A DNA stretch of 59,891 nt from a virus, in the IMG/VR virus record IMGVR_UViG_3300006111_000001; one strand, written 5' to 3'. Positions within the stretch are counted from its first letter, which is position 1. Each line of letters begins with the position of its first letter. A program made the translations under genes and the position numbers. The notes below the pieces were generated by a model. It saw only the letters and a list, made by a program, of their open reading frames with translations, did not search any database and was not told the DNA's origin. Of the stretch, positions 14,379 to 41,460 are shown piece by piece.

Positions 14379-17300
14379 CCGGCACTATCCCCAACATCAA
14401 ACCATGGCACCATTGCCAAAACCGTCAAAGGTAAAGGTTGCGTTTGCTGGACCGCAATTTGCCCCTTAGTCCCACCCAGCCCATCATTGATATTGTTATA
14501 AATATCCCCGGTGAAAAGGGCATAGGGCTGCAAAGGATTATTTGTCCCGACCGGTGCTGCAAATTGCGTCATATTCAACCATGTAACCGTTGCATTCCCA
14601 GGCTGAACGGATTGATCCGGCTGATTGGTTCCCACTTCAAAAACAGACCCGGAATTTTCAACCCGAACCGTTGCATTATACGCGACTTTTCTGCGTCCCT
14701 GAACAGTCACTTGCGCTGGAAAATCCAAATACATGGTTTGCAATTGCGCCGTGAACCCAAGGCCCACCACAATATTTGATGCAGCGACCGATAATGTAAC
14801 CGTACCGCCAGACACCACTTGAGGCGCTTGAACCACGCCATCCGCCAAAATTGAAACGGTCATGCCTTCCAAATGGTTCAGCCCATAAACCGTTGTGATC
14901 GGAGTGGCGATTGACCACGTACCCGGCGATTGCGGAATGGGCAGATTATTGGGGTCATTTGGAAAAGTCTGCGTAATTGGCCGCACGACCTGAACAGATA
15001 AATGACTTGAATCAATATAGGATAAAACCGTCAGCAGACCCCCGCCGATCCGGATAACATCGCCCGCTTGGCCATAGCCCGCCGTATTCGACAGCACCGC
15101 CGCACTTGTGGAAAATGTGGTGACGTTGAGCGAAAAAATATTAACAACCGCGCCGCCGCCCTGATTGGTCGGATCGACTACAACAAATTTAGGGTTTGTG
15201 TATCCCGTCAAGGTCCCGATAACCCCCACGGCGGTAATAGCCCCAGCCGTCACTGTTACCGTGCCGATAGCCCCTGATCCGGTTGGATCGTCAATCCGAG
15301 CATAAGTCGTATCGGAATAATTCTGACCTCCATAAGCCAAAACAGGTTGTTGAAGTGTCGGTGTTCCCGTCGCGCTTAAAACGCTGGCATAGGTTTCCGG
15401 TTGATTTTGGGTATAAGACAGCCCGGCATCAACGCACCACGCATCATCTATGGTTTCCCATAGCCGGTCATTCATGCGTTCCAGATAATACGCATTAACC
15501 CCCGCCCCAGGAATATACCGTTGAACCACAAAATAAGCCGCGTCCACCGGAGGCTCAGAAATCGAACAGACCGATTTAAACAAGCCATTGGTGTCATGCC
15601 GTGACCACGCATAAACGTCTTGCTCTTTCAAATAAGTCAGATTGAGCAAAATGCCGTCATCGCGCACGGCCCATAAGAGCTTATTCGGCTCCTCGCACCA
15701 ATCCCACCGCACGATCGTATGGCCATCAAACAGATGGTTTGAAAGCACCGTCAAATCCGTGCCGGTATAGATATTCGTAAAAAAATTATAGCTCAGATCA
15801 CGGACAATAGAGCCTTTTTCCTGAACATAGAGAATGTCAAAATTGACCGGAATGGGCCGGATTGTCGGAGAGCATCCGGTATAGGCTTGCGGCGCGGCAA
15901 ATTGATTTGACGGCGTGATGGCCGTTCCCGATTGCCCCGATCCGGATAATTGCCACGCTCCGCGCCCGGTCAAAACCACCAAGCCCCCAGGCATGTTAAT
16001 CATCCATTGAATGCCATTGACTTGTTGCGACCATGGAGTCCCAACAATCGCATCATCGGCTTTGGTCGGAATAGACCGATCCATATTAGTGAACGCGCCA
16101 GGTTGAGACGCAAAATAAGTGTCCGGATTGTTATACGTGGACGCATAAAACCGGCGTTGCTGGAAATACGCACAAACTCCCGGATAAGTCCCAGTGGACG
16201 GGCCGACTTGAATTGTACCTTGTGCGCCCGATCCGGTTGAATCAATAAATGACAATGTGTCAGAGGTCGAATACCCATGACCCCCATTGTCAATCGTGAC
16301 CCATTGGATTTGACCATCAATAACAACCACTGTACCGGCAAAGCTAGACCCATTGGTCGATGAAATTGATACCGTCACCCCAGCCGTGGAATAACCAGAC
16401 CCCGGATTTGTCACATTAATAGACGTGACCGAGGACGTAGCAAACGGATTGGTATGGATGGGCGGCGATACGGTATAATCAGGCGTGATATTGGCATCCG
16501 TAAAACAGACACCCCGGCTGGTTCCGATATACCCGTAAATCTGGCCCCCCACGGGAGGGGACGCATAAGACACGGGCGCCCGATAAAAATTATAGGATTC
16601 CGCCGTGGTCACTGGATTGCAGTTAATCCGAATGGTCCCGGCTTGCGCGGAAATATTAACCGATGCCACCGTATAAGGTGGAGACGCTATGCTTTCCTGC
16701 CCCGTGACCGCATCAACCGCCGTGGCCACATATTGATAGTAGAAAGACGTTGTGGACGTGGTGACGCTGGATGCAGACGCAAATAAAGCCGTGGGCGCAG
16801 CAATCGCCACATCAAAGCTGGTTTGCGTCAATGTCCAATTGTTATAATTGATCCGGGTTAAATCATAGGGCGGATAGGACGGATGAGTAAGCGTCATCAC
16901 GTCCGCGCTTTGGGTCCATTTTAACAAAGGAAGATCAGACGCGGCGTAAGGCGTTGACACCTCGTAAATGCGCGCCAGCGTTCCCCCGCCGGTCCATAAC
17001 GGCCAATTGGTCGCATCGACATTTCCACCGGTTAAAGGATCAAGCAAAGTGACCCCAATTGGGGACCGCGTGCCAATCACAAATAACCGGCCATTAACTT
17101 CCGGAATACCCCCAATACCAGACGCATAAACCCAATCGCCCGGCGCCCAAAGGTTATTGACCGAAATTAACGCGGGCGAAACATTGTTAAACCCATAAAT
17201 GGGTATTGGTGTTTCGGTGACATAAGCCCCATCAATGGCAAATCTCAAATAATTATCGCCAAATTCAAGTGCTATGCCTTGAGTGACCGAGTATTGAAAC

Positions 17301-20529: not shown

Positions 20530-21039
20530 CTACGATACAGAATAGCCAGCAGCGTAGAGAGCTTGCGTGTCGTAGCTATCTTCGCGCTGAATAACGATGC
20601 CACCGATGACATTGCCAGACGAAATGGATTCCGTGTTGGCATTGCCAGCCACAACCATGTTAATCCGGTAATAGCGCGGCAAAGCGGCGCCAGCCGGACG
20701 ACGCGGCACGTCAATGGGCAGCACGAAATAACCGGCCTTGTAAGACGCGGTTGAAGCCGTGCCGCTTTCGGCATAGGTGGTCCAGGTGGTGGAATTGGTC
20801 GAACCTTGGAATTGGAAATTCAGGGTCAGCGACGTACAAGCGCAAGTGATGCCGGTGCTTAATTGCAAGGCAACCTTGGGAATGTACAGGCCATCGCCGA
20901 TGCCCAAATCTTCAAACACGCCCATGTCGATGACGGATGATGCCGTGGTTGCAGTCGTGACCAGCGAAACATATTCGCCACCCGTAAATGCAAACGCGGA
21001 ACCGGAGTGATAGAAAAGTGTATTAACGTCGAACAACAT
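20530..21039 (-). CDS. Hypothetical beta-rich protein immediately downstream of capsid gene
   Basis: 169 aa, T/S/G-rich; position suggests a capsid accessory/decoration role. Confidence 0.4.
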   Translation of the reverse strand: MLFDVNTLFYHSGSAFAFTGGEYVSLVTTATTASSVIDMGVFEDLGIGDGLYIPKVALQLSTGITCACTSLTLNFQFQGSTNSTTWTTYAESGTASTASYKAGYFVLPIDVPRRPAGAALPRYYRINMVVAGNANTESISSGNVIGGIVIQREDSYDTQALYAAGYSVS

Positions 21040-21051
21040 TGTTCCGGCTCC

Positions 21052-22092
21052 TCAGACTAGGGTGGCTTCGGTGTTTACGAGCGTGTCGCAAACACGAATG
21101 GGGATGCCACGGAACTCGACAACCGGCTCACCGGCATACTCCGTGGGTTTCAACAACACGTTCTTGTCGCGGATAGCCTGAATGTCCAGGTACTCGCGGA
21201 CGGTACGGTTGACATAGAATGCCGGGCTGATACCGGGCGCCGGTTCATCCGGAGCATCCGTTTCCGTAATGCCAGATGCGCGCTTGGTCAGCGTCGGTAA
21301 ACGCACAACCGCCTTGCTCATGTAATAGAACAGGTCAGGCGGCGTTGAACCTTGCAGACCGACCGTTGTGGTGTCAATATTGGCAATGCGGCAAATATAA
21401 CGCCAATCCTTGGTGACCAAACCCGCATTCCATTGGAAATACGAGGTATAGGCCGGGAAGGGATTGTTGGCGGCGTCATAACCCGGAACCACATCCCCAC
21501 GATCTTCAAACACCAGACCAGCCTTCGACCCTTGCGGGAAAATGCCAAAGCAAGTGTTGTCACCCCAGCCAACAAGCCAGATTGAAGCGTTTGACGACCC
21601 GGTGCCACCGGCGTCAATCACGTTCTGAGCATTGGCGGCAGTGGTGGCCGTCTTGGTATTAAAGCGCGGCGAGAAACCCGTGAACTGGGTCGGAGCCGTG
21701 GACACGTTGCCATAGAACAGCGTGGTTGCCATTTGCTGGCTCAAACCTTCCAAATGGGCGTTATCTTCCGACATGCGAACTTGTGCGACCTTGCCGCCCA
21801 ATTCCGCCACCATCTTGTCAACTTGGCTATAAGCAGCCAATTGGCCAATGGCATCGGTCACTTGCGCCGTGCGCGACTTGGTGTAAGGAACGCCACCATA
21901 AGCCGCGCGCCAGGTGCCTTGCGGCAGACCGGTGCGGATCGTGCTTTTGTGACCAGTCGGCAGGTTGGATTCAACCCACAGCATGTCCTTAAACACTTCG
22001 TTGCACTGAGACAACAATTCAGCAATTTCCGCCACCGACCCATCCGGGTCCATGCGACGGGTCACGTCCAGAAGGGAAAGGTAAGCCATCAA
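21052..22092 (-). CDS. Putative major capsid protein
   Basis: 346 aa (T7 gp10A is 345 aa), directly after a scaffold-like acidic protein and before a terminator-like hairpin; position and size only. Confidence 0.5.
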   Translation of the reverse strand: MMAYLSLLDVTRRMDPDGSVAEIAELLSQCNEVFKDMLWVESNLPTGHKSTIRTGLPQGTWRAAYGGVPYTKSRTAQVTDAIGQLAAYSQVDKMVAELGGKVAQVRMSEDNAHLEGLSQQMATTLFYGNVSTAPTQFTGFSPRFNTKTATTAANAQNVIDAGGTGSSNASIWLVGWGDNTCFGIFPQGSKAGLVFEDRGDVVPGYDAANNPFPAYTSYFQWNAGLVTKDWRYICRIANIDTTTVGLQGSTPPDLFYYMSKAVVRLPTLTKRASGITETDAPDEPAPGISPAFYVNRTVREYLDIQAIRDKNVLLKPTEYAGEPVVEFRGIPIRVCDTLVNTEATLV

Positions 22093-22946
22093 TTTGCTCC
22101 ACTAGAGGCGGAATAACGTCTATCCGCGCGAGATTTAAGAACTGGTGCTTTCGGAGTGTTGGCAGCGACGGGACGTGCAGTCTCGACGGTTTTGCCAGCG
22201 ACCCAATTGACAAAACGGATGACTTCGGGATGATCCCCGGCCCCCGTTACGCGAAGCGCATTGCGTAATGCCGCTTCCTTTTCCGGCCCAACGATGGAGC
22301 CGTAGCGTTCAATAACCGCCCCCGCCTTGCGGATCGTCGTTTCTTGACGATTGCCACCAATGTCAGGGTCTTTGCGGAATTCATCTTTCCAGCTATCGCG
22401 CACTTTGTTCCATGTCTCTAATTGGACATTTTGAACCCGCTCCGCGCTTGCCTTTTGCTCGCTAATGAAGAAATCGACCAACTGTTGACCAAGGGCTTGC
22501 GCCGCATCATGCGGCACATTGGCCTTTACTTCGAACTCACCAAGCAACTTATTAAAATCACCAACTAACTTTTCATCCAGCTTGATGCCTTCCGGCACCG
22601 CGAATGTTTCATAAGACGGCAGAACCACGGCATCGGTCGATTCGGGCGCCTTTGCCTCATCAGACTTTGCCTCAATTTCTTTGGCTTCCGGCTCTTTGGT
22701 CCGAGCCTCGCTTAACAGCGTTTCGCCGGTATCAGCGACCTTTGGGGTTTCAGCAGCCGCGATATCCGGCGTTTGTGCAACGTCTGGCGTTGTTGTGGGT
22801 GTCGCGTTATCGGGTGCTGAAAAAGTCGCCGGTGTCGCGCTCGCATCCGGCACAGACACCGGCGCAGTTACCGCGCCCGCCCCTTGGCTTGCAGGTGCGG
22901 GGATGGTTGCCGCAATGTCTTGAATTGGATCAGGCACGCTGGTCAT
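22089..22946 (-). CDS. Putative scaffolding protein
   Basis: 285 aa; Pro/Thr/Ala-rich acidic N-terminal half and helical C-terminal half; stop overlaps the capsid-candidate start. Confidence 0.45.
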   Translation of the reverse strand: MTSVPDPIQDIAATIPAPASQGAGAVTAPVSVPDASATPATFSAPDNATPTTTPDVAQTPDIAAAETPKVADTGETLLSEARTKEPEAKEIEAKSDEAKAPESTDAVVLPSYETFAVPEGIKLDEKLVGDFNKLLGEFEVKANVPHDAAQALGQQLVDFFISEQKASAERVQNVQLETWNKVRDSWKDEFRKDPDIGGNRQETTIRKAGAVIERYGSIVGPEKEAALRNALRVTGAGDHPEVIRFVNWVAGKTVETARPVAANTPKAPVLKSRADRRYSASSGAN

Positions 22947-23298
22947 TCTCCGAAATCATTAAGGCGGCATTGGCAGGATCGACAGCGCACAAGAAACGCA
23001 ACAGGTTTAGACCAACTTCACGTTGACCCTCGTAAAACCCGTTTTCGTGTTCCCCCGTCATACTTATGCGCTTTTCCCAAATGCCCGTATCTGAAAGGAT
23101 TTGCCACAGCCATTCACGGCCATAAAGCGACCCCAAAATAGTCGCAGCGACCTCCCGCCGTTTAACTTCCCTTACTTGCGACTCTTGCTCCGCCAGCTTT
23201 ATTGCTTTTGGATCAGAGGCATCAAAGGCCGGTTTTTTGGTACGTGGACGACGCGGCAAGTTCATAGCCTTAACCACTAACCCGACGCATAAGCGCAA
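22930..23298 (-). CDS. Hypothetical protein
   Basis: 122 aa; real start may be the internal ATG near 23264 because the recurrent TGCGTCGGGTT motif lies within the annotated N-terminus. Confidence 0.35.
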   Translation of the reverse strand: MRLCVGLVVKAMNLPRRPRTKKPAFDASDPKAIKLAEQESQVREVKRREVAATILGSLYGREWLWQILSDTGIWEKRISMTGEHENGFYEGQREVGLNLLRFLCAVDPANAALMISENDQRA

Positions 23299-23428: not shown

Positions 23429-23614
23429 ATGATGTCCACTAGCGCAGAGACAAACGCCCCCGTTGCGTACCCATTGGTGCGCGTCAATTTATATATGGCT
23501 GAACACGTCATTAGGCTGATCGACAATGAAGCAATCCGCCGTGGTGTCAGCCGGTCAGAAATGATCCGGCGCGGGCTTGATCCGATGTTGGAAAAATTAC
23601 GGGGTGCCAGGTGA
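23429..23614 (+). CDS. Ribbon-helix-helix (CopG/Arc-like) DNA-binding protein
   Basis: 61 aa; ...EHVIRLIDNEAIRRGVSRSEMIRRGLDPMLEK is a typical RHH pattern; the only plus-strand gene inside the minus-strand late operon. Confidence 0.55.
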   Translation: MMSTSAETNAPVAYPLVRVNLYMAEHVIRLIDNEAIRRGVSRSEMIRRGLDPMLEKLRGAR

Positions 23615-23742: not shown

Positions 23743-24147
23743 TACCAATTGTGACACGCGCAATCAGCGATGATAATTTAATTTGACCGCTTGAGCATAA
23801 AGCAGATTAAACGCGCGATCAGACAATTCAATGCGCACCGGCTGACCATTTGATCCAACGCCGGTAATCAAATATTGCTGGCCGTCATAACTTAAATTGG
23901 CTGTTTGAGCGGGCTTATAATCATCCATGGGGCGCTTCCAACCATGAATCGGGGAAACCTTCTCTGATTTCCATTGGCACAGGCCCGCTTGACGGTATCC
24001 GCCGCACATAACCGCTTGACGTGCATTTGTATGCCTCAAAGGCACAAGACGCCAACATTTGTTCGCGGCCCGTTGAATTTAGCTTTTTGCCGTTAATCCG
24101 GATAGATCGCACATAGTCAATTAATTCATTGGGCGTCTTAACCTGAA

Positions 24148-24474
24148 TCACTTTAGCGCCTTTCTCATATCCGCAATGACCTCCGGATGGTCATTGATAA
24201 ACTGCAATAGAAACGGGGATATTGCCCGAATAACCCGTTCCTCCTCTTTCATTGGCAATCCAACCATAGACGTGCGGAATATCGTGTGAAGTAATTCATG
24301 CAAGAATGTTTCAGCTCGCACTTGCTGTTCTAAATCTTGGTCAATCCTGATTGTGGATTTGTGATCCAGAAACACGCCTTGGGTGTCATCGTAAAAATCA
24401 TATAGCTCTACTTTGATTTTTCGATACCCAACGCGGATTTCTGTTGGAAGTTTCATGCCGCCCACCGTACCCAA
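24148..24474 (-). CDS. Small protein with HExxH motif (possible mini-zincin)
   Basis: 108 aa; ...ETFLHELLHTIF... motif. Confidence 0.4.
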   Translation of the reverse strand: MGTVGGMKLPTEIRVGYRKIKVELYDFYDDTQGVFLDHKSTIRIDQDLEQQVRAETFLHELLHTIFRTSMVGLPMKEEERVIRAISPFLLQFINDHPEVIADMRKALK

Positions 24475-25820
24475 TCAGATTGATTAACCGTCACTTGATC
24501 TTCGAGATAGACCGGCACTTGGAATGTCACCCCGCGCTTAGGATGGGTCCACCAAAGAGCTTGAATAGGCGACTGATACCGCGCGCGCAGGAATAGCCGC
24601 GCATATTCGTCATAACCTTTCAACGTTCCGTTTACGATCACGCCGGGCAGCGGCAAGTATTGATGCCAATGCCCCATAATGACGGTATCGAAATCCCGGC
24701 CAATTTGAGATTCGGAACCGTGCAGCTTCACGGTCCCGCGCAGGATCGGCCCTAATGCGCCAATGATTCCATCGCCGCCCTTAACCCCCAGCGCATCACC
24801 ATGGGTTAAAAGATACCGATGCCCCGCCACGCAATAATGGGCATCCGTTTCCCCAGGAATATAAAACCGTACCCGGTCATCGCCCGCAAACCGCTGTTCA
24901 AGCCACGTATAAAGCAGCCATTCATAAGACGTGTGAACCCGTTGCTTTGACCTTGGCTTTTTGCCCATACGCCCATGATTGCCCACGACGCAAGGCACAA
25001 ACACTTTGCCAAACCGCTCTGCCATGGTTTCAATGGCGCGAATCAATTGACCCATTAGCCAAACTAAAGTTGGCGCCGTCCGCATTTCATTGGTCTGGGT
25101 CAATTCATCGTGCAGGTCATCCCCGGAAATCATATCCCCGCCCAAATTGACTACAATACCGGGATATTCAGGGGATGATAAGTGATGGATGCACAAATCA
25201 ACAATGCGCTCGACCAGCGATTTTATGCGCCGTTCGGCAATTTCAAGATTGAATTCATTGACCCCCGCCACTTCAATCCGGTCAACCCGCTCGCCCACAT
25301 GCCAATCTGACCACATCGTACTAGGTACGCCAGGCGCCCCCGCCACACTGGTTGAATTAACAACCCAATCAGGAATAATGATCGGCAACCGGGACAGGTT
25401 GAATATTTCTTCCCTGATCCGTTCAGCGGATAGGCTTTCCCGGTGCGCCTCGGTCAATTGCTTTGTTAAAACATCAATCCGGTCTTTGAACTTGATCCGC
25501 TCGCGTTCGGCAAGTGGCGTTTGATCAAGCGCAATGCTAACCGGCTCTCCCGATATTTGTTCAAATGTGCCATCCGATTTTAACCGGAATCGCGGCTTTT
25601 CATTGGCAGCTTTCGGTATCTCTGACGCAACCAGACCTCGTTTAAACCCGGCATTACACCGCGTTTCGAATGTCCCGCGCGGGATTCCCTTGTCTCCCGT
25701 GGGCTGCATTTGCTTATCAAGAACCGACGCAAATTGCGACGCCATCAAATGCGTTTTATGCCGGGCATATAAATCCACAGCTTCTTGCAATGCCCATTGT
25801 GGAATTTTATGCCCGGCCAT
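24453..25820 (-). CDS. Calcineurin-like metallophosphoesterase
   Basis: 455 aa; ordered motifs GGDMISGDD, GNHG, THGD, GHWH typical of the metallophosphatase fold; N-terminal ~200 aa extension. Confidence 0.7.
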   Translation of the reverse strand: MAGHKIPQWALQEAVDLYARHKTHLMASQFASVLDKQMQPTGDKGIPRGTFETRCNAGFKRGLVASEIPKAANEKPRFRLKSDGTFEQISGEPVSIALDQTPLAERERIKFKDRIDVLTKQLTEAHRESLSAERIREEIFNLSRLPIIIPDWVVNSTSVAGAPGVPSTMWSDWHVGERVDRIEVAGVNEFNLEIAERRIKSLVERIVDLCIHHLSSPEYPGIVVNLGGDMISGDDLHDELTQTNEMRTAPTLVWLMGQLIRAIETMAERFGKVFVPCVVGNHGRMGKKPRSKQRVHTSYEWLLYTWLEQRFAGDDRVRFYIPGETDAHYCVAGHRYLLTHGDALGVKGGDGIIGALGPILRGTVKLHGSESQIGRDFDTVIMGHWHQYLPLPGVIVNGTLKGYDEYARLFLRARYQSPIQALWWTHPKRGVTFQVPVYLEDQVTVNQSDWVRWAA

Positions 25821-25827
25821 GGTTCAC

Positions 25828-27513
25828 CTATGCCGCAACTTGAACTTTAACCGTCTCAGGCGGCAAATACCTTGCTCGCTCCTCATCGGTTAAGGTTGCA
25901 GGGTTTTTGCACGTGACTTCCAACGTCCCCAAATGAACCACTTGGAATGTCAAATCAACATCGCACCAGATTTGATACCCAGCTTTGCGAACCTTGCGAC
26001 AGAAATTCAAATCTTCCGAAAAATACAAAAATTCTTTGCCGTCATGGCCCAAAGTGTAATTCTCGTTGATCCACTCCGCTAATGGCGTGCCATCCAAACT
26101 GTCCAAAACCTCTTGCGGCGGCACGTCCGTAAAATAATCTTTCAGCAAAGATTTGAACCCATCCAGCCGGGTTTCACCTTGCCAATGATAGGTTTCAAAA
26201 TATGACGGCCATTGCGTCTTGCGGTACACATCACATTTGACCAGCAACAACCCGCCAGGCAGCAACAAAGCTTCCTGTAACCCGCCTTCCATAACCGATT
26301 GCGGGTTTTTAAAGGTCCCCAATGTTTCATAGGGCGGCACGCGCTTATTATAAGTCGCGCCCACAATGTCTTTCTTGTGGTTCAACAACCGAATAAGCGT
26401 ATCCGGTGGAAACTTCATATCTGAATCCACCCACAGGATAAAATCGCATCCTGTATCCAAAGCTTTTTGAACCGTGGAGTTGCGGGAATGCGTAATCATC
26501 GAAGATTGAACATTGATAATGGCGGTATCAATCCCGGCCCGTGCCGAATAAGTCAGCAGCCCCGCCACATCAACCGCCGTTCCCGCTTCCCATGTCCGGC
26601 CAGATGGAATAGCAATACCCACCCGCAACGGACGCGGGATGGATTTTTTAATCTCAGCAATGTGCTTTTCAGCCGCCGCTTTGATTTGCAAATACTTGTC
26701 AGATGGCGCGTGATCCATCTTGGCCGACACTTGCTTGATCAATTCCGGATTGCGCAGGTGCTTAATCTTTTCATAGCAAAAGGCTTGGGCTTGCGGCAAA
26801 CGTTCAAGCATGGCCCGGAACGCAGCCGTTTCTTTGCCGCCAAACGCCACTTCACCCAGAATAAACGCGTCTCGGCACCGAACAGGATGCGTTGCCTCAA
26901 AATAGCCAAGCCAAAATTCAAACTCAACCAAACCGTGAGTAAGCCCCTTGCCTTCGGGCATTAACACATCAAGATCAACCTCGATCAATTGGCCAAACAC
27001 CGTGGCGATTTCATCCCACCACGTATCGCCAAACCAATTTGGAAACCCATTGGGCATGAAATACCCAAGTGTCTCATAGACCTTGCGAGGAATGACCGGC
27101 AGAGACGGAAACCCCTGATGCCCCGCATCCCGCAGGTGCATGACCCCAATCCCATTGACCAGTCCCTTGGCCGCATTAAAAATGCGATTGGGCCATTTGG
27201 CATCATCATCCAAAGTATAGTCATCGGCAAAAGCCATCAGATACTTACCTTGAGATTTTTCAGCCAAAGCATTGTAAACCGCTGCCAATGTCCCATGTCG
27301 CTCACCCAGCACGACGGACAATTGCCGACCGGGGATTTCAAGCGTGCCAAGCAATTCAACCGCTTCGGTATAAGTTGAATCGTCGTCGTCTAGTGCAATA
27401 AGCACTTCGACATTTGGCGGGATTTTGCGGTTAATCATCAAAGATGATACGGCGCGCAAAAGATTGCCGGGACGACCCCGCGACGGGATCAGGACAGAAA
27501 TTTCAATGGTCAT
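25828..27513 (-). CDS. Two-domain glycosyltransferase (GT-A fold, GT2-like N-domain plus second DxD domain)
   Basis: 561 aa; N-terminus ISVLIPSRGRP...ALDDDDS (GT2-like); second domain with WVDSDMKF (DxD) and C-terminal FSEDLNFCRKVRKAGYQIWCD. Confidence 0.65.
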   Translation of the reverse strand: MTIEISVLIPSRGRPGNLLRAVSSLMINRKIPPNVEVLIALDDDDSTYTEAVELLGTLEIPGRQLSVVLGERHGTLAAVYNALAEKSQGKYLMAFADDYTLDDDAKWPNRIFNAAKGLVNGIGVMHLRDAGHQGFPSLPVIPRKVYETLGYFMPNGFPNWFGDTWWDEIATVFGQLIEVDLDVLMPEGKGLTHGLVEFEFWLGYFEATHPVRCRDAFILGEVAFGGKETAAFRAMLERLPQAQAFCYEKIKHLRNPELIKQVSAKMDHAPSDKYLQIKAAAEKHIAEIKKSIPRPLRVGIAIPSGRTWEAGTAVDVAGLLTYSARAGIDTAIINVQSSMITHSRNSTVQKALDTGCDFILWVDSDMKFPPDTLIRLLNHKKDIVGATYNKRVPPYETLGTFKNPQSVMEGGLQEALLLPGGLLLVKCDVYRKTQWPSYFETYHWQGETRLDGFKSLLKDYFTDVPPQEVLDSLDGTPLAEWINENYTLGHDGKEFLYFSEDLNFCRKVRKAGYQIWCDVDLTFQVVHLGTLEVTCKNPATLTDEERARYLPPETVKVQVAA

Positions 27514-27526
27514 GCCAAAGCCCTTT

Positions 27527-27766
27527 TTAATTGCGATACGGAATAATCAAACCCGTCCCTTTGCGCATTAAGCGTTCTGTTTTTTCGCTCATTTCTTCAT
27601 AGATGCCCGCCATAGCAAGCCAGTGCATTGACTTGCGCGAATGAGCCATGCCGCGCGCCAATGTGTGCAATTGCGCCAAATGATCCTTCATGCGCAGGAA
27701 CAATTCGCGCTCGTTAATTTCAGAACCAATATGGTTCTGATATGCTTTCATCGTTGTTTCAGCCAT
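27527..27766 (-). CDS. Hypothetical protein
   Basis: 79 aa ORF. Confidence 0.35.
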   Translation of the reverse strand: MAETTMKAYQNHIGSEINERELFLRMKDHLAQLHTLARGMAHSRKSMHWLAMAGIYEEMSEKTERLMRKGTGLIIPYRN

Positions 27767-27904
27767 GATTCAATTCCCCTGTTAAATGTCGGCTTGCCAT
27801 CCTTATCCGTTTCAAAGCCCCTAAAGCCGGGCGCCCGGACACGCAGGACAGCTTGGTATGCTCGGACAGCCGACTTACCCGCCGGAAATGGCGCCCCACG
27901 AAAC

Positions 27905-28462
27905 TCAAGCAGACAACTCACGCAGCTTGGCCAGCCGCGCATTCAAATCACTCAGCTTGGCCGCAGCTTCGGCCTCGCGCGCCTCAATTTCAGCCTCGCG
28001 CTCATCCAATGCTTTATGCGCCGCCAATATCTGATCCCTGGCGGTTTCAATGTTTTCTTCGTGGTCCTCGACCGCCATTTGATGATCCGCCGCGACCTTG
28101 GCTGCTTGCGCATTGAAGGCTTCTTGCGCTGCATTCAAATCAGCCTCGCGCTGATTCAAATCATTCTCGCGCGCGTCTAGCGCCGTTTTGCGCTGATCCA
28201 AATGCGCCCGGATGCCTTCTTGAACATCCGACAATTGGTCAATTTCCACCTTGCGCTGATCCAAGGCTTTTTCCTTGGCCACCACGTCCGTTTGAGCCTC
28301 ATTGACTTCGGCCAGTAAAGCCGTGTTTTGCTCAATGGCATCTTTCAACGTGGCAATGACCTGCCCCGTGGTCGCGGAATCAGACAAAAGCACAATCAGA
28401 CCTTCAAGTGTGCCAAGCCCCTTTAAGGTGCTTTCCATTGGCATGTTTAATCCACCAAACAT
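27905..28462 (-). CDS. Coiled-coil protein
   Basis: 185 aa, strongly helical/charged (…AEIEAREAEAAAKLSDLNARLAKLRELSA). Confidence 0.4.
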   Translation of the reverse strand: MFGGLNMPMESTLKGLGTLEGLIVLLSDSATTGQVIATLKDAIEQNTALLAEVNEAQTDVVAKEKALDQRKVEIDQLSDVQEGIRAHLDQRKTALDARENDLNQREADLNAAQEAFNAQAAKVAADHQMAVEDHEENIETARDQILAAHKALDEREAEIEAREAEAAAKLSDLNARLAKLRELSA

Positions 28463-28473
28463 TGTCCCGATCC

Positions 28474-28773
28474 TTATGTGTTAGAAATCACAGATACGGA
28501 CGTTCCGCCGCCCGCTGGCACCGCAAAATATTCCGTTGAGTTTTGATACATCCGTGGAGACGTTGCCGCCGCAGCCACGTTGAAATCTACCGAGCAAGTG
28601 GCATCCGGATGCAGCCGCACCATGACCGTTTTGGGATTAAAGAACGCCGCGTAGGTCACGCCCGCCGTGATGGCCACCTTCTGCGTTGCCAAATACGGTT
28701 GATGACCAATCTGGCCAATCTGGTTTCCCACCATGCCCAATGACGAAAATTCAGTTACATAAAGATTGGCCAT
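28474..28773 (-). CDS. Hypothetical protein
   Basis: 99 aa ORF downstream of portal. Confidence 0.4.
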   Translation of the reverse strand: MANLYVTEFSSLGMVGNQIGQIGHQPYLATQKVAITAGVTYAAFFNPKTVMVRLHPDATCSVDFNVAAAATSPRMYQNSTEYFAVPAGGGTSVSVISNT

Positions 28774-28776
28774 GGC

Positions 28777-28938
28777 CTAACCCCCGCTCAATTTGGCAAA
28801 AATAACGCGCCAATGATTGGGCATCGGATCAGAACCAACCACCGCCCATCCGGCAGCACCATGCGCGTTTAATCGTTGAGCCAATTCTTCCGGTGTCATC
28901 CGTGGGAAATCGACCACGTTATACTCGTATGTGTTCAT
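28777..28938 (-). CDS. Small protein translationally coupled to portal
   Basis: 53 aa (MNTYEYNVVDFPRMTPEELAQRLNAHGAAGWAVVGSDPMPNHWRVIFAKLSGG); its ATG overlaps the portal TGA (ATGA). Not in ORF track. Confidence 0.3.
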   Translation of the reverse strand: MNTYEYNVVDFPRMTPEELAQRLNAHGAAGWAVVGSDPMPNHWRVIFAKLSGG

Positions 28939-30800
28939 TGACTGCCCCCGTTCCCAATGCCGTGCAGCATGGCTTGAACCGCGTTTTGCCCCCCGCCCAC
29001 GTCAATATCCGATAGTGTTTTGGCCCCTTGAACCGCCGCCAGGCTGGCTTGCCCTTGTTGCTGCGCTTGCATCTGCGCCGCGCGTTGCTGACGCAATGCC
29101 GCAACCTTCTCAGGCGAATTAAGGATATGTTTGGGAATAAATAAATCATCCGCGTATTCGCGCATCCAGGCATCCCGATCCCAAATATCAGCGATGGACG
29201 GATCACCCGCTTGCATGTTCCCAGCCGTACCAGCAAACCGCTCAAGCGCGGACGTGGACGAGGCTTTTTGCGCCAAGGCCAACATGCCCACAAACTCAAT
29301 TCCGATATTCACGCCCTGTAACGATTTGGGCAGCGGCGGCAGCAAACCCTTGCGTTGCATAATCGCAAACACCCGCTTAACCGCAGGTGCTAGGGCTTCA
29401 TTCTGTAACCGCTCAATCACCGGACCCAGCACTTGCAGCTTTTCTTGTTGCCGTTGTGCAACTTCATAAGCGGTCATGTTCTTGTTCGATGCCGTTTCCA
29501 GCATCATGAACAGGTCATTAAAGAACCCCTCTTTGATCCGCTGTTGAATTGCGGCCAAGTCTTGCATCATGTGATCAATGTTGGGCTGAACCGTATAAAT
29601 CGGTCGCATGCCCTTGCCATTGTCCAATTGATTCACATAAGTCACTTTGCCGGGCAGGATCGAGGAAGGCTCATTCTTCAAATCCATCGAAGCAAGCATT
29701 GGCGGACGCACCATTTTTTCAATGGCTTCCGCTTTGCGCATTGTCTCGACTTGCAACTGCATAATGTCCGGGAGCACGTCCATGCCCACCGAACGCCCAT
29801 AAGCATCATTGGACGTTGTGGCCCAGCGTGGAGCGTAATGCGGTTGGTCTAAGAAGCCCCGCATGGATAGGGGATAAGCCCCACCGGCACCCCAGACCCA
29901 ATAGACCTCGCGCCAGACAAAATCCCCATCCACGACGCCGACATTGCCGGAGCCATTAGGCGTCTTAATGGGAAAATTTGGCTCAATCGCATGCGCCACG
30001 GTCCGTTCGACTTCAAGCGAACCGCCCTTTTCCATCCACAGCTTTTGAATGTCAGACGGGCAATTCTCAATCCCAAACATTTCCACAATCGCGGAAACGG
30101 TCATAACAAATTGGCGATAAAGAGATTCAACCCGATTGGCCGATGACGAAGCCAAGAAATACTCACCGCAGCATGGCGTATAAGCACGGATCACATCTTC
30201 ATCATCCTCGTAAAGAATGACCGGACCCGTCCCAAAGGTCACCAAATCTTCAAACATTTGGGCGCCAGCGTCATAGAAGTTCGACCGGCCCATGACCTCG
30301 TAAACGCGGTTCTCGCATTCTTCAAACCAATCAACTGCGTCATCATCCATATCTGAACGATCAAGCAGCCCAGGCTTTAATTTGAACCACGGGCGAGATG
30401 GAGACATTAAACCGCTCATCATACCAGCCGCACACTTACGCATGGCCAGCGTGCCCGTAGGATCGACAATCGCGTCATTAATAGGCGAGCCGCGCACCAT
30501 GCTATTGGGTGTCGGCATTGCATTGTTAATAAAAATGCCCCGGCGCGGCAGGATATAGGTTTCAAGGATCGACCAATGCGACGCCCAGCTTTGCCGCCAG
30601 GATCGAAGCATGGCCAGCCGTGTCTCTAAATGCCCGCGCAGGATCAGCCAGTCATTGCCTTGCGTTACTTCGCGCACCGAAGCTTTGGCCGGTGTCATGG
30701 CTAATGCTTTTGGCCCGGCGCTTTCATACGCGACCTCGCGCGCCTTACGGCCCGGCTTGGAGCGTGTATCCGGACGGTCTGTAACCGCAGCGTCACTCAT
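28935..30800 (-). CDS. Portal protein
   Basis: 621 aa; position immediately after terminase; size and composition consistent with podovirus portal/connector proteins. Confidence 0.55.
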   Translation of the reverse strand: MSDAAVTDRPDTRSKPGRKAREVAYESAGPKALAMTPAKASVREVTQGNDWLILRGHLETRLAMLRSWRQSWASHWSILETYILPRRGIFINNAMPTPNSMVRGSPINDAIVDPTGTLAMRKCAAGMMSGLMSPSRPWFKLKPGLLDRSDMDDDAVDWFEECENRVYEVMGRSNFYDAGAQMFEDLVTFGTGPVILYEDDEDVIRAYTPCCGEYFLASSSANRVESLYRQFVMTVSAIVEMFGIENCPSDIQKLWMEKGGSLEVERTVAHAIEPNFPIKTPNGSGNVGVVDGDFVWREVYWVWGAGGAYPLSMRGFLDQPHYAPRWATTSNDAYGRSVGMDVLPDIMQLQVETMRKAEAIEKMVRPPMLASMDLKNEPSSILPGKVTYVNQLDNGKGMRPIYTVQPNIDHMMQDLAAIQQRIKEGFFNDLFMMLETASNKNMTAYEVAQRQQEKLQVLGPVIERLQNEALAPAVKRVFAIMQRKGLLPPLPKSLQGVNIGIEFVGMLALAQKASSTSALERFAGTAGNMQAGDPSIADIWDRDAWMREYADDLFIPKHILNSPEKVAALRQQRAAQMQAQQQGQASLAAVQGAKTLSDIDVGGGQNAVQAMLHGIGNGGSQ

Positions 30801-31157: not shown

Positions 31158-31952
31158 CTATCGCTTGCCCCATGCAGAGGCGAGAGGATTGTAATCAACT
31201 TCATGTTTGTTTGGTCGCAACCCAGCGCGCACGCGGTAATCGTCAACCGGACGAAATGCGGCAATGTCAATCCCGCTCATAATCCCATACCGCATGCAGT
31301 CCATTAAATGGTCATTTTCTTTGACCACTTGCCCCTTATCGTCCCGGCGATAAATGCGATACTCGCTTAACGTATTTTGCAGCGTTTTAAATATTTTAAG
31401 CCGCCCCGTCGATAATCGCATCCAGGTCCGATATATGCCCGCTTCCCTCGCATTATTGGCCGTAATCAGCGTTAATCCTAATTGTTGATATTCCCATAAC
31501 AATTGCTCGCCATCCTTTTGTGCTCGACCGCGTGACGCCGGATCAATAACCCCCGGTATCCACTCTCCGCGCGCCTTAATGGCTTGAGCGTGAGTCGATG
31601 GTTCAGCCTGCCCGCGATAATGTTCAGAATAAGCGTAAACCACGTCCGATTCGGTATCATGCGCAAACCACAATCCCGCCGTTCTATTCCATCCCACGTC
31701 CATGGCGTAAAAATGTTTCCAATGAGCGGGTATTTCGAACGGATCACAGGTCACGTCATCTTCCGGCACCGGATAAATGGCGCCCGATCCAAGGGCCGGA
31801 ATGCCTTTGGTGCGCGCGTCCCGTTCATGCGGAGCATAAGACTTAATCATTTCCGCTTGCGCTTCCGCTGATATGTGCGGAACGTCTGCCCAGGAAACGA
31901 ATGTAATGTATTTCGCCATTTCCGTTAGCCGTTTTGCAAAGCAACGGCCCAA
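31158..31952 (-). CDS. terL: Terminase large subunit, C-terminal nuclease portion
   Basis: 264 aa; RNase-H-like terminase nuclease pattern (…HFYAMDVGWNRTAG…, …ENDHLMDCMRYG…). Probable true start is MAKYITF at ~31919, 5 nt after the HNH stop. Confidence 0.7.
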   Translation of the reverse strand: MGRCFAKRLTEMAKYITFVSWADVPHISAEAQAEMIKSYAPHERDARTKGIPALGSGAIYPVPEDDVTCDPFEIPAHWKHFYAMDVGWNRTAGLWFAHDTESDVVYAYSEHYRGQAEPSTHAQAIKARGEWIPGVIDPASRGRAQKDGEQLLWEYQQLGLTLITANNAREAGIYRTWMRLSTGRLKIFKTLQNTLSEYRIYRRDDKGQVVKENDHLMDCMRYGIMSGIDIAAFRPVDDYRVRAGLRPNKHEVDYNPLASAWGKR

Positions 31953-32449
31953 CGCTTGCCGCGAACAATGCGCCCAATTTGCGTTTGTTTTACCCCAAAC
32001 ATTTCACCTAATTGTCGTTGATAAAATTTGCCGCTTTTCCAAAGGCTTAATATCTTACGCACATCATCGACAGACAAGACGGCGTTATGATGCCGCTCAC
32101 CCATCAAACTTGTCCCATGCTTTCGCTTGTCCAAATGATTTGACGACCGAGTATCCCATCTTAGATTTGAATAATGGTTATTCGATGGATCGCCGTCGAT
32201 ATGGCAAATTTCCGCCCCGTCAAACGGCTTTAACCCTATAAAAGCATACGCAACCAATTGATGAGCTTTTTTGTGGATCGACTTACCATCCTTACGCAAA
32301 ATCACCATTGGATAGCCGTCAGATCGAATCCACATCTTCAATATTTTGCCAATGCGCGCGCCGGGAGCAGCCGTAACGCGACGAACAGCGCCCCATTCAC
32401 TAACTTCATAATCCTCAAAACCAGGCACAATCCGCCATTCAGCAATCAT
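31925..32449 (-). CDS. HNH homing endonuclease inserted within terL
   Basis: 174 aa; N-terminal NUMOD4-like (YEVSEWGAVRR) and HNH core (HQLVAYAFIG…ICHIDGDPSNNHYSNLRWDTRSSNH). Start overlaps the TerL-ATPase stop (ATGA). Confidence 0.8.
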   Translation of the reverse strand: MIAEWRIVPGFEDYEVSEWGAVRRVTAAPGARIGKILKMWIRSDGYPMVILRKDGKSIHKKAHQLVAYAFIGLKPFDGAEICHIDGDPSNNHYSNLRWDTRSSNHLDKRKHGTSLMGERHHNAVLSVDDVRKILSLWKSGKFYQRQLGEMFGVKQTQIGRIVRGKRWAVALQNG

Positions 32450-33219
32450 GACTTAACCTCCCCTTCCAAACGCGCACCACCCGGCATGAATGAAAGAACC
32501 ACAGCCGAAAGGCCGCGCAGCGGCGTGAACCCGCATATCACCAACCCGGACGGTTGACCGGGCACGGTCGAAAGCGTTCGAGTTAAGCCTTCCGAGTAAA
32601 TGTCCAATGGCGGTTCTTCATCAAATTGCATAATGTCGATTTTGGCCGCTTGGAACGATTCACGCCCCTGATCATAGGATTTAAACAGCATCCGCGACAC
32701 GCCGCCCGATAAATGCTTGACCGTCACGCTATCCACAGCATCCGGCACGCCCGGCCTTGGTGTCGCCTTGATGATATTGTCAGCCGGTATTAAACCCGTG
32801 CCATGGTCCCCGGTTGGCCCCAAATACGTCACTTGCAAGGATTCGCGGACGGCCTTGGTATCTTCGCCCGCCGCCCACATGGTCACAGGGCGATCAAACT
32901 TGCGCCCAACCCACCAATGGGGATACCAACCAGTTAAATGAAGGGCGCACTCATACGAACACCCAAACGTCTTTCCCGATCGGTTGCCGCCGACCAAAGC
33001 CCGCTCTTGATACGTGGCCCCAGCCGCAAAATGGGCCAAATGCTTAGGGTATAATTCGCGCCGCAATGGCCCGGTATCAGGATAAGCCCGGTAAAGCAGC
33101 GTCTTGCGGTAAATGTCATGCTCTAATTCGATAATGGCCTTAAGGCGCGCATAATCATCCACCGGCAGCGCTGCCAATTGTTCTGGCGTCAGCGCCGCAA
33201 CTTCATCGAACAAAGCCAC
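32446..33219 (-). CDS. terL: Terminase large subunit, N-terminal ATPase portion
   Basis: 257 aa; Walker A (GGNRSGKT), Walker B-like (IDIMQFDEEPP); ends where the HNH ORF begins. Confidence 0.75.
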   Translation of the reverse strand: MALFDEVAALTPEQLAALPVDDYARLKAIIELEHDIYRKTLLYRAYPDTGPLRRELYPKHLAHFAAGATYQERALVGGNRSGKTFGCSYECALHLTGWYPHWWVGRKFDRPVTMWAAGEDTKAVRESLQVTYLGPTGDHGTGLIPADNIIKATPRPGVPDAVDSVTVKHLSGGVSRMLFKSYDQGRESFQAAKIDIMQFDEEPPLDIYSEGLTRTLSTVPGQPSGLVICGFTPLRGLSAVVLSFMPGGARLEGEVKS

Positions 33220-36770: not shown

Positions 36771-36771
36771 A

Positions 36772-41450: not shown

Positions 41451-41460
41451 TTCTTAAAAC

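Follow-up and report, generated by a model that had tools for sequence, protein, structure and literature searches.

The genes that lie between portal and scaffold in this podovirus appear to comprise two independent units, namely a tandem-domain glycosyltransferase (GT) that would O-glycosylate a virion protein, and a mobile phosphoesterase/HExxH module that would act on DNA or nucleotides. We put the probability of this reading at about 0.5. The phage is predicted to be temperate because the window (the whole stretch of viral DNA analysed, 59,891 nucleotides) encodes an integrase, an S24-type CI repressor and a resolvase. Its head module, initially described as T7-like, is rather of the BPP-1/epsilon15-like podovirus type, as judged from its portal and from Pfam matches to GP7, Bbp16 and Bbp19. 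The slot of interest, bounded by the portal and a Bbp19-like protein, and the head genes that follow it contain the features below; scaffold, capsid and cement protein were assigned with the PHROG set 458, 212 and 427 and with Pfam GP7 and Bbp16.

28935..30800, minus strand: portal protein, upstream edge of the slot (PHROG 332, 1.8e-145; Pfam Head-tail_con; 37% identity to BPP-1 Bbp21)
28777..28938, minus strand: small 53-aa gene in the portal–GT gap (ORF, also in public assemblies)
28474..28773, minus strand: small 99-aa gene in the portal–GT gap (ORF, also in public assemblies)
27905..28462, minus strand: 185-aa coiled coil in the portal–GT gap (ORF, also in public assemblies)
27527..27766, minus strand: 79-aa gene in the portal–GT gap (ORF, also in public assemblies)
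26659..27513, minus strand: N-terminal GT-A domain of the GT, residues 1–285 (Pfam GT2, 1.8e-9, 38.2 bits; PHROG 14945)
25828..26658, minus strand: C-terminal GT-A domain of the GT, residues 286–561 (PHROG 1574, 6.1e-22; Pfam Anp1, 29.5 bits; synteny)
24453..25820, minus strand: predicted metallophosphoesterase, 455 aa (five invariant motifs; PHROG 284; Foldseek)
24148..24456, minus strand: small HExxH protein, 102 aa (PHROG 1233, 1.8e-15; weak M78/DUF6782 matches below cut-off)
23764..24151, minus strand: one or two small overlapping ORFs (76 aa; 93/54 aa; gene calls differ)
23429..23614, plus strand: ribbon-helix-helix (CopG/Arc-like) gene (weak Pfam RHH_1 match, obtained with the identical gene of public assemblies)
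22930..23298, minus strand: Bbp19-like protein, downstream edge of the slot (Pfam Phage_Bbp19, 5e-4; PHROG 528, 3e-10; syntenic in relatives)
22089..22946, minus strand: scaffold (PHROG set above)
21052..22092, minus strand: major capsid protein (PHROG and Pfam sets above)
20530..21039, minus strand: Bbp16-like cement protein (PHROG and Pfam sets above)

The end of the portal gene (28935) and the start of the Bbp19-like gene (23298) are 5.6 kb apart, compared with a portal-to-scaffold distance of 0.3–0.7 kb in BPP-1 and Cobetia phage Carin1, which bears out the initial annotation in pointing to unusual extra DNA here, as do the three minus-strand ORFs that it had called at 24148 to 27513. The GT ORF (561 aa, 27513..25828) starts 13 nt past the preceding gene on the late strand, and is separated from the phosphoesterase by 7 nt. 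Upstream of it, four small genes (27527..28938, minus strand) show weak family matches or none; of the four, the 79-aa gene alone has a counterpart, 49% identical and just upstream of the GT in one relative (L011). The 185-aa coiled coil resembles SMC/Rad50 coils only faintly and lacks an ATPase domain. Downstream of the HExxH gene, the ORFs at 23764..24151, where public assemblies call only the 54-aa gene, gave no family matches in Pfam or PHROG searches. The plus-strand ribbon-helix-helix gene interrupts the late-strand run and, together with AT-rich gaps, stands between the three-gene block and the Bbp19–scaffold–capsid genes. A promoter and terminator scan gave signal at background level, and the co-transcription with virion genes first described for the block is putative.

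Fold, motifs and Pfam matches identify the 561-aa protein as a predicted tandem GT-A, GT2-like glycosyltransferase, in agreement with its initial annotation. The N-domain scores 38.2 bits against Pfam Glycos_transf_2 (gathering cut-off 23.3) and matches PHROG 14945 (‘glycosyltransferase’), whereas the C-domain is marginal for Anp1 (29.5 bits against a cut-off of 28.8) and matches PHROG 1574, a family of unknown function in PHROG. The N-domain shares ~27% identity with Streptomyces phage glycosyltransferases, which lie in a non-structural region and are the only actinophage matches. Conservation centres on the C-domain, which many phages encode by itself as a ~200-aa protein; full-length two-domain homologues number about 70, at 38–50% identity. 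Their alignment leaves D363-S364-D365, E500-D501 and H527 invariant in the C-domain and D98 in the N-domain, where D42-D45 is nearly invariant and the aspartate at position 97 is replaced by asparagine in many relatives. The DxD metal/nucleotide-sugar motif is conserved in both domains. With the AlphaFold model (pLDDT 90.2), Foldseek returned 317 PDB matches at E<=1e-3; all of the top matches listed are GT-A enzymes, led by the two-GT-A-domain enzymes PmHS2, K4CP and ColGalT1 and followed by TarS/TarP/RmlT. No membrane helix was detected in the GT (maximum Kyte-Doolittle value of 1.3 over 19-residue windows), and the enzyme is predicted to be soluble.

Gene order among relatives shows the GT to be a lineage-conserved resident of the head module, and the initial view of a single cargo block is not borne out. 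In a first lineage, 16 non-redundant loci run portal, GT (with both domains or just the C-domain), Bbp19, scaffold, capsid and Bbp16, among them a Stellaceae MAG, a Burkholderia sp. Ax-1724 prophage and a Verrucomicrobiia MAG. When relatives were collected by capsid, which does not bias the set towards the GT, the gene was present in four of the five evaluable loci at a capsid identity of at least 63%, and in 6 of 15 overall. Because it is missing from several relatives with 50–63% capsid identity (L137, L139, L140, L144 and L145), the GT is predicted to be dispensable for assembly. In a second podovirus lineage (>40 IMG/VR loci) a C-domain homologue (GT_C) is placed in the order scaffold, capsid, a ~100-aa gene, GT_C and tail tubular A, its stops and starts abutting those of its neighbours. 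A PHROG scan around 19 distinct GT_C clusters likewise found mostly scaffold, major head, portal, adaptor and virion structural families, with nucleotide-sugar epimerases also prominent. Methylobacterium homologues of the C-domain, only 26–31% identical, adjoin flagellin genes in divergent orientation at five loci.

We infer that the GT is made late, most likely alongside the portal, scaffold and capsid proteins, and we likewise infer both the protein acceptor and the virion glycan. Using nucleotide-sugars and a divalent metal (DxD sites), the enzyme would work in the cytoplasm and O-glycosylate a virion protein that self-assembles, be it capsid, cement or another surface component; with its two active sites it could add two sugars in succession. 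The fold, the intact catalytic motifs, the conserved placement among head genes in both podovirus lineages and the flagellin adjacency of cellular homologues are consistent with this proposal, as are sugar-tailoring genes in the slot of relatives; the nature of the best Foldseek matches, polysaccharide synthases rather than protein glycosyltransferases, counts against a protein acceptor. Among the three roles first offered for the block (virion glycosylation, modification of host surface polysaccharide, nucleotide-sugar metabolism), the first is the best supported, by context only, and we do not favour a part in nucleotide-sugar metabolism for the phosphoesterase. The Ser/Thr-rich fibres cited at the time are real (29–31% S/T) but are not evidence for glycosylation. 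Scaffold, major capsid protein and Bbp16-like cement protein are candidate acceptors. Alignment of capsids from 20 GT-positive and 11 GT-negative relatives revealed no indel or C-terminal extension tracking the GT, and only one weak Thr column separates the groups. Similarly, the Ser/Thr content of the cement protein does not differ between GT-positive and GT-negative relatives, and its alignment has no indel, C-terminal extension or convincing Ser/Thr column that goes with the GT.

To our knowledge, virion glycosylation by a phage is established as a precedent only in mycobacteriophages. There, phage-encoded glycosyltransferases (examples being Che8 gp110, Corndog gp38 and Myrna) decorate capsid and tail-tube subunits, according to Freeman et al. 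2023 as cited in PMC12363180, PMC11256854 and PMC12619734. By analogy the same principle, a phage GT decorating virion subunits, may apply here, although the mycobacteriophage hosts are actinobacterial, the GT genes of Che8-like phages lie near the right genome end and not inside the head operon, and the glycans are found at C-termini of capsid and tail-tube proteins, an extension that the present capsid lacks. Cytoplasmic GT2/GT-A enzymes also glycosylate flagellin. For example, Aeromonas Fgi-1, a soluble GT2 lacking a signal peptide or membrane segment, modifies the filament subunit before export, and was modelled on templates that the GT matches as well (2z86, 5tz8 and 5hea) (PMC7874193). 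The acceptor proposed here is instead a virion protein, and the Methylobacterium homologues are uncharacterised.

A broader proposition, to which we give somewhat less than even odds, is that at least two large podovirus lineages of Gram-negatives conserve virion-protein glycosylation as a trait embedded in an operon, effected by the PHROG 1574 GT-A family, with the fused two-domain form acting as a two-step enzyme. If true, virion glycosylation would not be restricted to actinophages, the lineages in question being environmental and prophage podoviruses of Alphaproteobacteria, Burkholderia and Verrucomicrobia. The uncharacterised PHROG 1574 family would be the enzyme, with cellular cousins that would glycosylate flagellin, and this sub-lineage would have fused the PHROG 1574 domain to a second GT-A domain.

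Modification of host polysaccharide and glycosylation of DNA are weaker rivals. In the former, the tandem GT, possibly with the GT61 gene at 55662..56834, would alter or make the LPS, capsule or EPS that an infected or lysogenic cell carries, serving superinfection exclusion or preventing readsorption of progeny to debris. We regard this as unlikely, even though the phage is temperate, the top fold matches include wall-teichoic-acid glycosyltransferases besides the capsule polymerases, and EPS and colanic-acid glycosyltransferases of NCBIfam are weakly similar. The slot in relatives also holds sugar-tailoring genes (a DegT aminotransferase, a methyltransferase, GT61, a GT8-like protein and sulfotransferases), and an RmlD/epimerase-like gene that overlaps the GT start. 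Many of these genes are on the opposite strand, which fits lysogeny-expressed morons, and could serve host-surface modification. The GT itself, however, sits on the late strand within the head operon, away from int/att; capsid and tail tubular A flank it tightly in the second lineage; it has neither a membrane segment nor a GtrA/GtrB-like partner; and its Methylobacterium homologues adjoin flagellin genes, not polysaccharide loci. Gtr-type seroconversion employs a membrane-embedded GT with flippase and bactoprenol-GT partners near int/att. We rejected this type for the present enzyme, which has no hydrophobic segment and is encoded within the head operon, with the integrase 23 kb away.

The capsule polymerases merit closer comparison. 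PmHS2 (Pasteurella, 8vh7/8vh8) and K4CP (E. coli K4 chondroitin polymerase, 2z86/2z87), the top Foldseek matches (E 1.7e-13 to 1e-10), share with the GT the tandem GT-A architecture and a DxD motif per domain, are soluble or peripheral, and add two different sugars. Identity is nevertheless 11–14%, and whole-chain TM-scores of 0.26–0.29 imply that the domain arrangement differs. Both enzymes polymerise capsule and are encoded in cellular loci, whereas the GT is encoded in the head operon of a phage; its C-domain also exists as a stand-alone protein.

Alternatively, the GT could hypermodify phage DNA, with the adjacent DP1/Mre11-like phosphoesterase as a nuclease that spares or processes the modified DNA. 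Phage GT-A enzymes with R...DxD...ED motifs, encoded in clusters with a C5-methyltransferase and a 5mYOX, glycosylate 5hmC in DNA and resemble TarP (10.1101/2023.12.21.572611). The present GT has the same fold and DxD/ED motifs, TarP is among its fold matches, and the window encodes a C5-cytosine methyltransferase (39467..40654). In one further locus (L097) a GT_C homologue directly follows a phosphoesterase homologue, within a replication/nucleotide module that also encodes DNA pol A, a dNMP phosphatase and a dNTP pyrophosphohydrolase. This hints at a DNA target for some members of the GT family and at a possible link between the two genes, GT–phosphoesterase adjacency now being seen twice, in unrelated contexts. 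DNA glycosylation is still improbable for the GT studied here: the Pfam-annotated 18.8–58.2 kb contain no 5mC dioxygenase (TET/JBP, 5mYOX), dCMP/dUMP hydroxymethylase or thymidylate-synthase homologue, 12 kb that include a different module separate the GT from the methyltransferase, and the family context is overwhelmingly one of head genes. A 492-aa protein beside the methyltransferase, considered as a base-hydroxylating candidate, was rejected as it is an SNF2 helicase.

Returning to the proposal of two units, the second consists of the phosphoesterase and HExxH genes. Domain searches, which supported the GT, gave no Pfam or NCBIfam match for the phosphoesterase at E<=0.1 (Metallophos models included) and no PDB sequence match. 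Its assignment as a putative calcineurin-like metallophosphoesterase with an N-terminal extension holds nonetheless, on three grounds. First, five motifs (D172-x-H174, G228-D229, G280-N281-H282, H340 and G383-H384-x-H386) are invariant in alignments of 19 and 31 sequences. Second, PHROG 284 (‘exonuclease’) is matched at 2.6e-42. Lastly, the model, with a pLDDT of just 75.7, adopts the alpha/beta sandwich and matches PolD DP1 (1.3e-7), Mre11 (5.5e-7) and LpxH (1e-5) in Foldseek. The extension (about residues 1–160) is helical and HTH-like, precedes the DP1/Mre11-like catalytic domain, and corresponds to N-termini that match HTH Pfams in homologues. LpxH is a UDP-sugar pyrophosphatase, and its fold match counts against a nuclease reading.

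The HExxH protein is a genuine family member: its relatives, ~105 aa long, amount to 461 cluster representatives at E<=1e-3. It was first annotated with 108 aa from a TTG (24474..24148); the ATG at 24456, giving 102 aa and overlapping the phosphoesterase stop by 4 nt as in public assemblies, is the more likely start. Peptidase_M78 (14.8 against 22 bits) and DUF6782 (17.4 against 27 bits) fall below cut-off, and an M78 (ImmA/IrrE) metallopeptidase was rejected despite the HExxH motif, the ~102-aa protein also being shorter than the models.

Comparison with related phages separates this pair from the GT, which is kept in the head module, whereas no related head module examined (~20 with GT) carries the pair. 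Phosphoesterase homologues instead follow DNA pol A–DUF3987–RNR (16 loci) or DUF2800–MTase–pol A (3 loci), or lie beside exonuclease VIII/RusA in S-CBS1 and beside SSAP/HNH/DNA polymerase in Bacteroides phage BU2-2. Occurrence outside structural operons, named at the outset as grounds against the block's proposed role, therefore applies in part, to the phosphoesterase. The two genes appear to form a separate mobile pair, resident elsewhere in DNA replication/recombination modules or as insertions in unrelated phages. PHROG 284, Mre11-SbcD and PolD-DP1 nucleases share with the phosphoesterase the five motifs, the nearest fold and the replication/recombination context of homologues. The present protein differs in having no PolD large-subunit partner and no Rad50/SbcC-type ATPase gene beside it, the latter also being absent at 27 related loci, and in its additional HTH-like domain and small HExxH partner.

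That all three genes form one glycosylation pathway, with an LpxH-like phosphoesterase acting on nucleotide-sugars or a sugar-phosphate and the HExxH protein processing the acceptor, is very improbable: the tight spacing, the LpxH match and the L097 adjacency would suit it, but none of roughly 20 GT-bearing related head modules has a phosphoesterase or HExxH gene, a GT occurs at only 2 of 27 phosphoesterase loci (the window copy and L097), the usual neighbours of phosphoesterase homologues are DNA polymerase, RNR or recombination genes, the HTH-type domain points to DNA binding, and DP1 and Mre11 outrank LpxH. We postulate instead that the region downstream of the GT is a hot spot for accessory genes, holding in this phage a mobile two-gene module in which the HTH-bearing phosphoesterase would be translationally coupled to the HExxH protein. 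The pair most likely acts on DNA or nucleotides, as a putative nuclease or phosphodiesterase, independently of the GT. It recurs with the same 4-nt overlap upstream of terminase in another locus (L162; 40%/39% identity), and is probably also present in the contig of a 79%-identical homologue (P0081).

The genes at ~0.5–41 kb of the window are carried on the minus strand, with a plus-strand ribbon-helix-helix gene listed within the run. Its head portion reads, in transcription order:

Head-module genes of the window phage
Terminase large subunit, minus strand, first in the head run
78-aa gene, minus strand, between terminase and portal
30800..28935, minus strand, portal
Four small genes of 53, 99, 185 (coiled coil) and 79 aa, minus strand, in the gap between portal and glycosyltransferase
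27513..25828, minus strand, glycosyltransferase (GT), 561 aa, from Pfam, PHROG and predicted fold
25820..24453, minus strand, phosphoesterase, 455 aa, from motifs, PHROG 284 and predicted fold
24474 or 24456..24148, minus strand, small HExxH protein
One or two small ORFs, minus strand, downstream of the HExxH gene
23429..23614, plus strand, ribbon-helix-helix (CopG/Arc-like) gene, 61 aa
23298..22930, minus strand, Bbp19-like protein
22946..22089, minus strand, scaffold
22092..21052, minus strand, major capsid protein (Pfam GP7)
21039..20530, minus strand, Bbp16-like cement protein

The portal is 37% identical to the Bordetella phage BPP-1 and Salmonella phage epsilon15-type portals, and the tail genes encode T7-type tubular proteins A and B plus internal virion proteins; together with the GP7 capsid, this identifies a BPP-1/epsilon15-like podovirus whose portal and tail are of the T7 family. 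The phage is temperate, since it carries an integrase (50323..51375), a CI-type HTH and S24 repressor (42458..43120) and a resolvase (53405..54031). The interval 34846..43120 contains GcrA-like (34846..35406), GapR-like, DnaA_C-like and DUF1376 genes and RusA, of which the GcrA, GapR and DnaA_C-like genes point to a probable alphaproteobacterial host. A minus-strand cluster at 37029..40654 comprises an N6/N4 DNA methyltransferase (37029..37907), an SNF2-type helicase (37835..39313) and a C5-cytosine methyltransferase (39467..40654). The window approximates a complete ~60-kb genome that recurs in several freshwater metagenomes, and megablast of 20.0–33.5 kb against 50,697 phage records matched no close cultured relative. 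Between portal and Bbp19-like gene the window holds 5.6 kb; the portal-to-scaffold interval contains only bbp20 and bbp19 in BPP-1 and a single 96-aa gene in Cobetia phage Carin1. Promoter and terminator consensus scans of 22.5–31.2 kb gave matches at or under shuffle expectation, and neither Rfam nor tRNA scanning of the full window gave any.

Pfam Glycos_transf_2, above its gathering score, and PHROG 14945 (glycosyltransferase) cover the GT N-domain; Anp1, just above its own, and PHROG 1574 (function unknown) cover the C-domain. In the AlphaFold model (32 homologues, mean pLDDT 90.2) a helical linker joins two Rossmann-like domains, and the top Foldseek matches in the PDB are enzymes with two GT-A domains (heparosan synthase PmHS2, chondroitin polymerase K4CP and collagen galactosyltransferase), followed by single-domain TarS, TarP and RmlT. 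Membership of the GT-A/GT2 superfamily means that this is not a new kind of protein. A database search recovered ~70 full-length two-domain homologues at 38–50% identity, many on 50–65-kb contigs. Invariant residues include D98 in the N-domain and D363-S364-D365, E500-D501 and H527 in the C-domain, so that both active sites look intact, as judged by conservation. The protein has no hydrophobic segment.

Mapping window proteins onto related loci revealed a first lineage with the order portal, one to three small genes, GT, a variable stretch, Bbp19-like, scaffold, capsid and Bbp16-like. The GT has two domains in the closer relatives (L007, L011–L015, L130) and is reduced to the C-domain (~200 aa) in more distant loci (L016–L021, L033, L039, L132, L135, L149, L160); capsid identities span 49–83%. 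A Stellaceae MAG, a prophage of cultured Burkholderia sp. Ax-1724 and a Verrucomicrobiia MAG share this order. In a capsid-seeded locus set, chosen without the GT as query and hence unbiased toward it, the GT was present in four of five evaluable loci at ≥63% capsid identity, two of five at 50–58% and none of five at lower identity. These counts, along with its absence from BPP-1 and Carin1, indicate a gene that nearly all close relatives have, that is patchy at greater distance and that assembly as such can do without.

The C-domain also forms a stand-alone family (GT_C) with at least 461 IMG/VR matches. In a second lineage of more than 40 fetched loci, relatives of Manatee Spring phage MW202711 (L002, MW202711.1; IMG/VR loci L027, L029, L035, L037, L040, L042 and L045–L088), a GT_C of ~210 aa occupies the order scaffold, capsid, ~100-aa gene, GT_C and tail tubular protein A, with neighbouring stops and starts abutting or overlapping. 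The 79-aa gene upstream of the window GT was considered as a counterpart of this ~100-aa gene and rejected, the two being unrelated. When the three upstream and three downstream genes of 19 distinct GT_C clusters (<60% identity) were compared with PHROGs, the commonest neighbour families were head scaffolding, major head, portal, protease, head-tail adaptor, neck, virion structural and tail-fibre. Also among the neighbours were two nucleotide-sugar epimerases and, in small number, DNA polymerases. By this conserved gene order, the GT is very probably a conserved head-module gene of a podovirus lineage.

The stretch after the GT has different contents in every relative and is an insertion hot spot within the head operon. 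In the portal-to-scaffold slot of L007, an RmlD/epimerase-like gene overlaps the GT start, and the opposite strand carries a DegT aminotransferase, a methyltransferase, GT61, a GT8-like protein and a sulfotransferase. In L014 (2491..9149) the slot carries a sulfotransferase and unknowns, and two ~1,100-aa proteins with no Pfam match lie in the portal-GT gap; the L013 slot (7052..14558) encodes a GIY-YIG homing endonuclease together with a radical-SAM-like protein, Dam methylase and an IS1595 transposase, and that of L012 has DUF4326 and HNH proteins. The hot spot has taken up a nuclease-like pair in the window; in relatives its contents range from sugar-tailoring genes to homing endonucleases, methylases and an IS element. 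The sugar-tailoring genes are consistent with glycan building.

Cellular homologues of the C-domain bear on the acceptor. A genome-collection scan found them, at 26–31% identity to the window, in five Methylobacterium loci (L171, L173, L174, L175 and L176), and in all five the gene is divergent to one or two adjoining flagellin genes whose products are Ser/Thr-rich in their central domains; the M. phyllostachyos locus (L176) continues with a second GT2 gene. Soluble cytoplasmic GT2/GT-A flagellin glycosyltransferases are documented, such as Aeromonas Fgi-1 (PMC7874193), a protein modelled on templates that our GT also matches; our GT resembles it in being free of membrane anchorage. These neighbourhoods support a protein acceptor for the GT family, one that is a subunit of a surface structure built by self-assembly, and suggest that the Methylobacterium homologues are an uncharacterised flagellin glycosyltransferase family.

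That the phage GT modifies a virion protein is a tentative reading, to which we give close to, or slightly under, even odds. The initial annotation had drawn attention to Ser/Thr-rich fibres, and the fibre proteins at 457..1947 and 4695..5492 do contain 29–31% Ser/Thr, a composition common in phage fibres. An alignment of capsids from 20 GT-positive and 11 GT-negative relatives revealed no indels and one weak, phylogeny-confounded Thr column, and neither the length nor the Ser/Thr content of the cement protein separated the groups; no capsid or cement feature in these alignments tracked GT presence. Phage virion glycosylation is established for mycobacteriophages only (Freeman et al. 2023, as cited in PMC12363180, PMC11256854 and PMC12619734). 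Glycosylation there is on a C-terminal extension (PMC12619734), and the window phage has no such extension.

Modification of host polysaccharide by the GT is unlikely. We retain this explanation because the sugar-tailoring genes of the slot, lying on the opposite strand, also fit lysogeny-expressed morons that modify the host surface; the GT itself, however, occupies a late-operon position and has no membrane segments, and both the synteny of the second lineage and the flagellin neighbours of the cellular homologues argue against it. The integrase/resolvase accessory region contains a second glycosyltransferase gene (55662..56834, plus strand; Pfam Glyco_transf_61, 390 aa), and a GT61 gene is also found in the L007 slot. 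For lysogenic conversion of the host surface, the second gene of the window is a better candidate than the GT of the head operon. Glycosylation of DNA appears more doubtful still: phage DNA-hypermodifying GT-A enzymes have the general motif pattern in common with the GT and resemble TarP (10.1101/2023.12.21.572611), and the phage encodes a C5-cytosine methyltransferase, but the annotated 18.8–58.2 kb contains no acceptor-creating dioxygenase or hydroxymethylase, and the only sizeable unknown beside the methyltransferase, a 492-aa protein considered as a TET-like enzyme, proved to be the SNF2 helicase.

The phosphoesterase had no match in Pfam or NCBIfam and none in the PDB with a single sequence, and a PDB profile search returned only two weak, unrelated matches; its placement therefore relies on all five calcineurin-type motifs (invariant in alignments of 19 and 31 homologues), PHROG 284 'exonuclease' (2.6e-42) and a predicted fold (pLDDT 75.7) nearest to the PolD small subunit DP1, then Mre11, then LpxH. 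Residues 1 to ~160 form a helical extension, a region that matches HTH Pfam models in homologues, and the family exceeds 3,500 homologues. For the HExxH protein the most probable start is the ATG at 24456, which gives a 4-nt overlap with the phosphoesterase stop. A word-indexed search found only the protein itself and an IMG/VR pattern scan only copies of the window phage, while an exhaustive phmmer search uncovered a family of 461 cluster representatives whose members are ~105 aa long; similarity to M78/ImmA-type peptidases stayed under threshold.

Neither gene is present in any related head module examined. Among 27 IMG/VR loci, the phosphoesterase follows DNA polymerase A, a DUF3987 primase/helicase and ribonucleotide reductase in 16, and a DUF2800 nuclease, a methyltransferase and DNA polymerase A in three. 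Its homologue follows exonuclease VIII and RusA in Synechococcus phage S-CBS1, and lies between an annealing protein and HNH/DNA polymerase in Bacteroides phage BU2-2. A 79%-identical homologue (P0081), downstream of tail-fibre and endolysin genes and close to an integrase, is followed by a 106-aa ORF with a 4-nt overlap. In Azospirillum agricola prophage L123 (9001..11347) a 58%-identical homologue sits in the gap between cement protein and Phage_attach of a lambda-like head-tail module, ahead of a DUF1937 protein and a deoxynucleotide monophosphate kinase. Lastly, an unrelated phage (L162, 3781..5324) carries phosphoesterase (40%) and HExxH protein (39%) with a 4-nt overlap, just upstream of terminase. 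These several genomic addresses indicate that the pair is, in all probability, separate cargo in the form of a mobile module, and its members are ordinary mobile accessory genes.

Coordinates and domain calls of all three genes in the initial annotation are upheld by ORFs, Pfam/PHROG matches, motifs and predicted folds, as is the placement of the GT in the head module. Its single cargo block is not, since relatives keep the GT in the slot and never the other two genes. We consider instead, with a probability of about 0.85, that the region consists of two independent units, a conserved GT and mobile cargo. A single pathway served by all three genes is the least probable alternative, and GT-phosphoesterase adjacency recurs once outside the window, in L097 (5115..8713), where a phosphoesterase homologue (55%) directly precedes a GT_C homologue (36%) in a setting like DNA/base-modification modules (DUF2800 nuclease, Gp2.5-like SSB, D12 methyltransferase, DNA polymerase A, dNMP phosphatase and dNTP pyrophosphohydrolase). 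The associations of the pair and its predicted fold point to DNA or nucleotide chemistry. We read the phosphoesterase as a probable DP1/Mre11-like nuclease or phosphodiesterase guided by its HTH region, and the HExxH protein as its small metal-binding partner; the pair might serve in recombination, host DNA degradation or anti-defence. It is a widespread uncharacterised phage module.

Literature searches yielded no description of a head-operon GT in BPP-1-like or other podoviruses of Gram-negative hosts. What is new is that the operon position is conserved across two lineages, that a second GT-A domain is fused to the enzyme and that cellular cousins lie beside flagellin genes. Should the GT prove to glycosylate the virion, glycan coats would be a property of hundreds of podoviruses, uncultured or prophage, of Gram-negative bacteria. 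This would bear on the stability of particles and their adsorption, on grazing and immune recognition, and on the design of phage therapy, and PHROG 1574 would gain a function. The conserved synteny offers test systems in the Burkholderia sp. Ax-1724 prophage and the flagellin-adjacent Methylobacterium homologues.

Three further features of the head run deserve mention. The ribbon-helix-helix gene (23429..23614, plus strand) has AT-rich gaps on either side and may be a regulator or antitoxin-like moron, and may mark a transcription-unit boundary ahead of Bbp19-scaffold-capsid. The scaffold N-terminus (22650..22946, minus strand) is of low complexity, its first ~100 residues being rich in Pro, Thr, Ala and Asp. 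The large terminase (31158..33219, minus strand), a single, in-frame and uninterrupted gene in relatives L130 and L145, is split into an N-part (32446..33219, Terminase_6N) and a C-part (31158..31919/31952, Terminase_6C), with an HNH_3/NUMOD4 ORF (31925..32449, minus strand) packed tightly between them; because Rfam detects no group I intron here, the interruption looks like a free-standing homing endonuclease dividing an essential gene.
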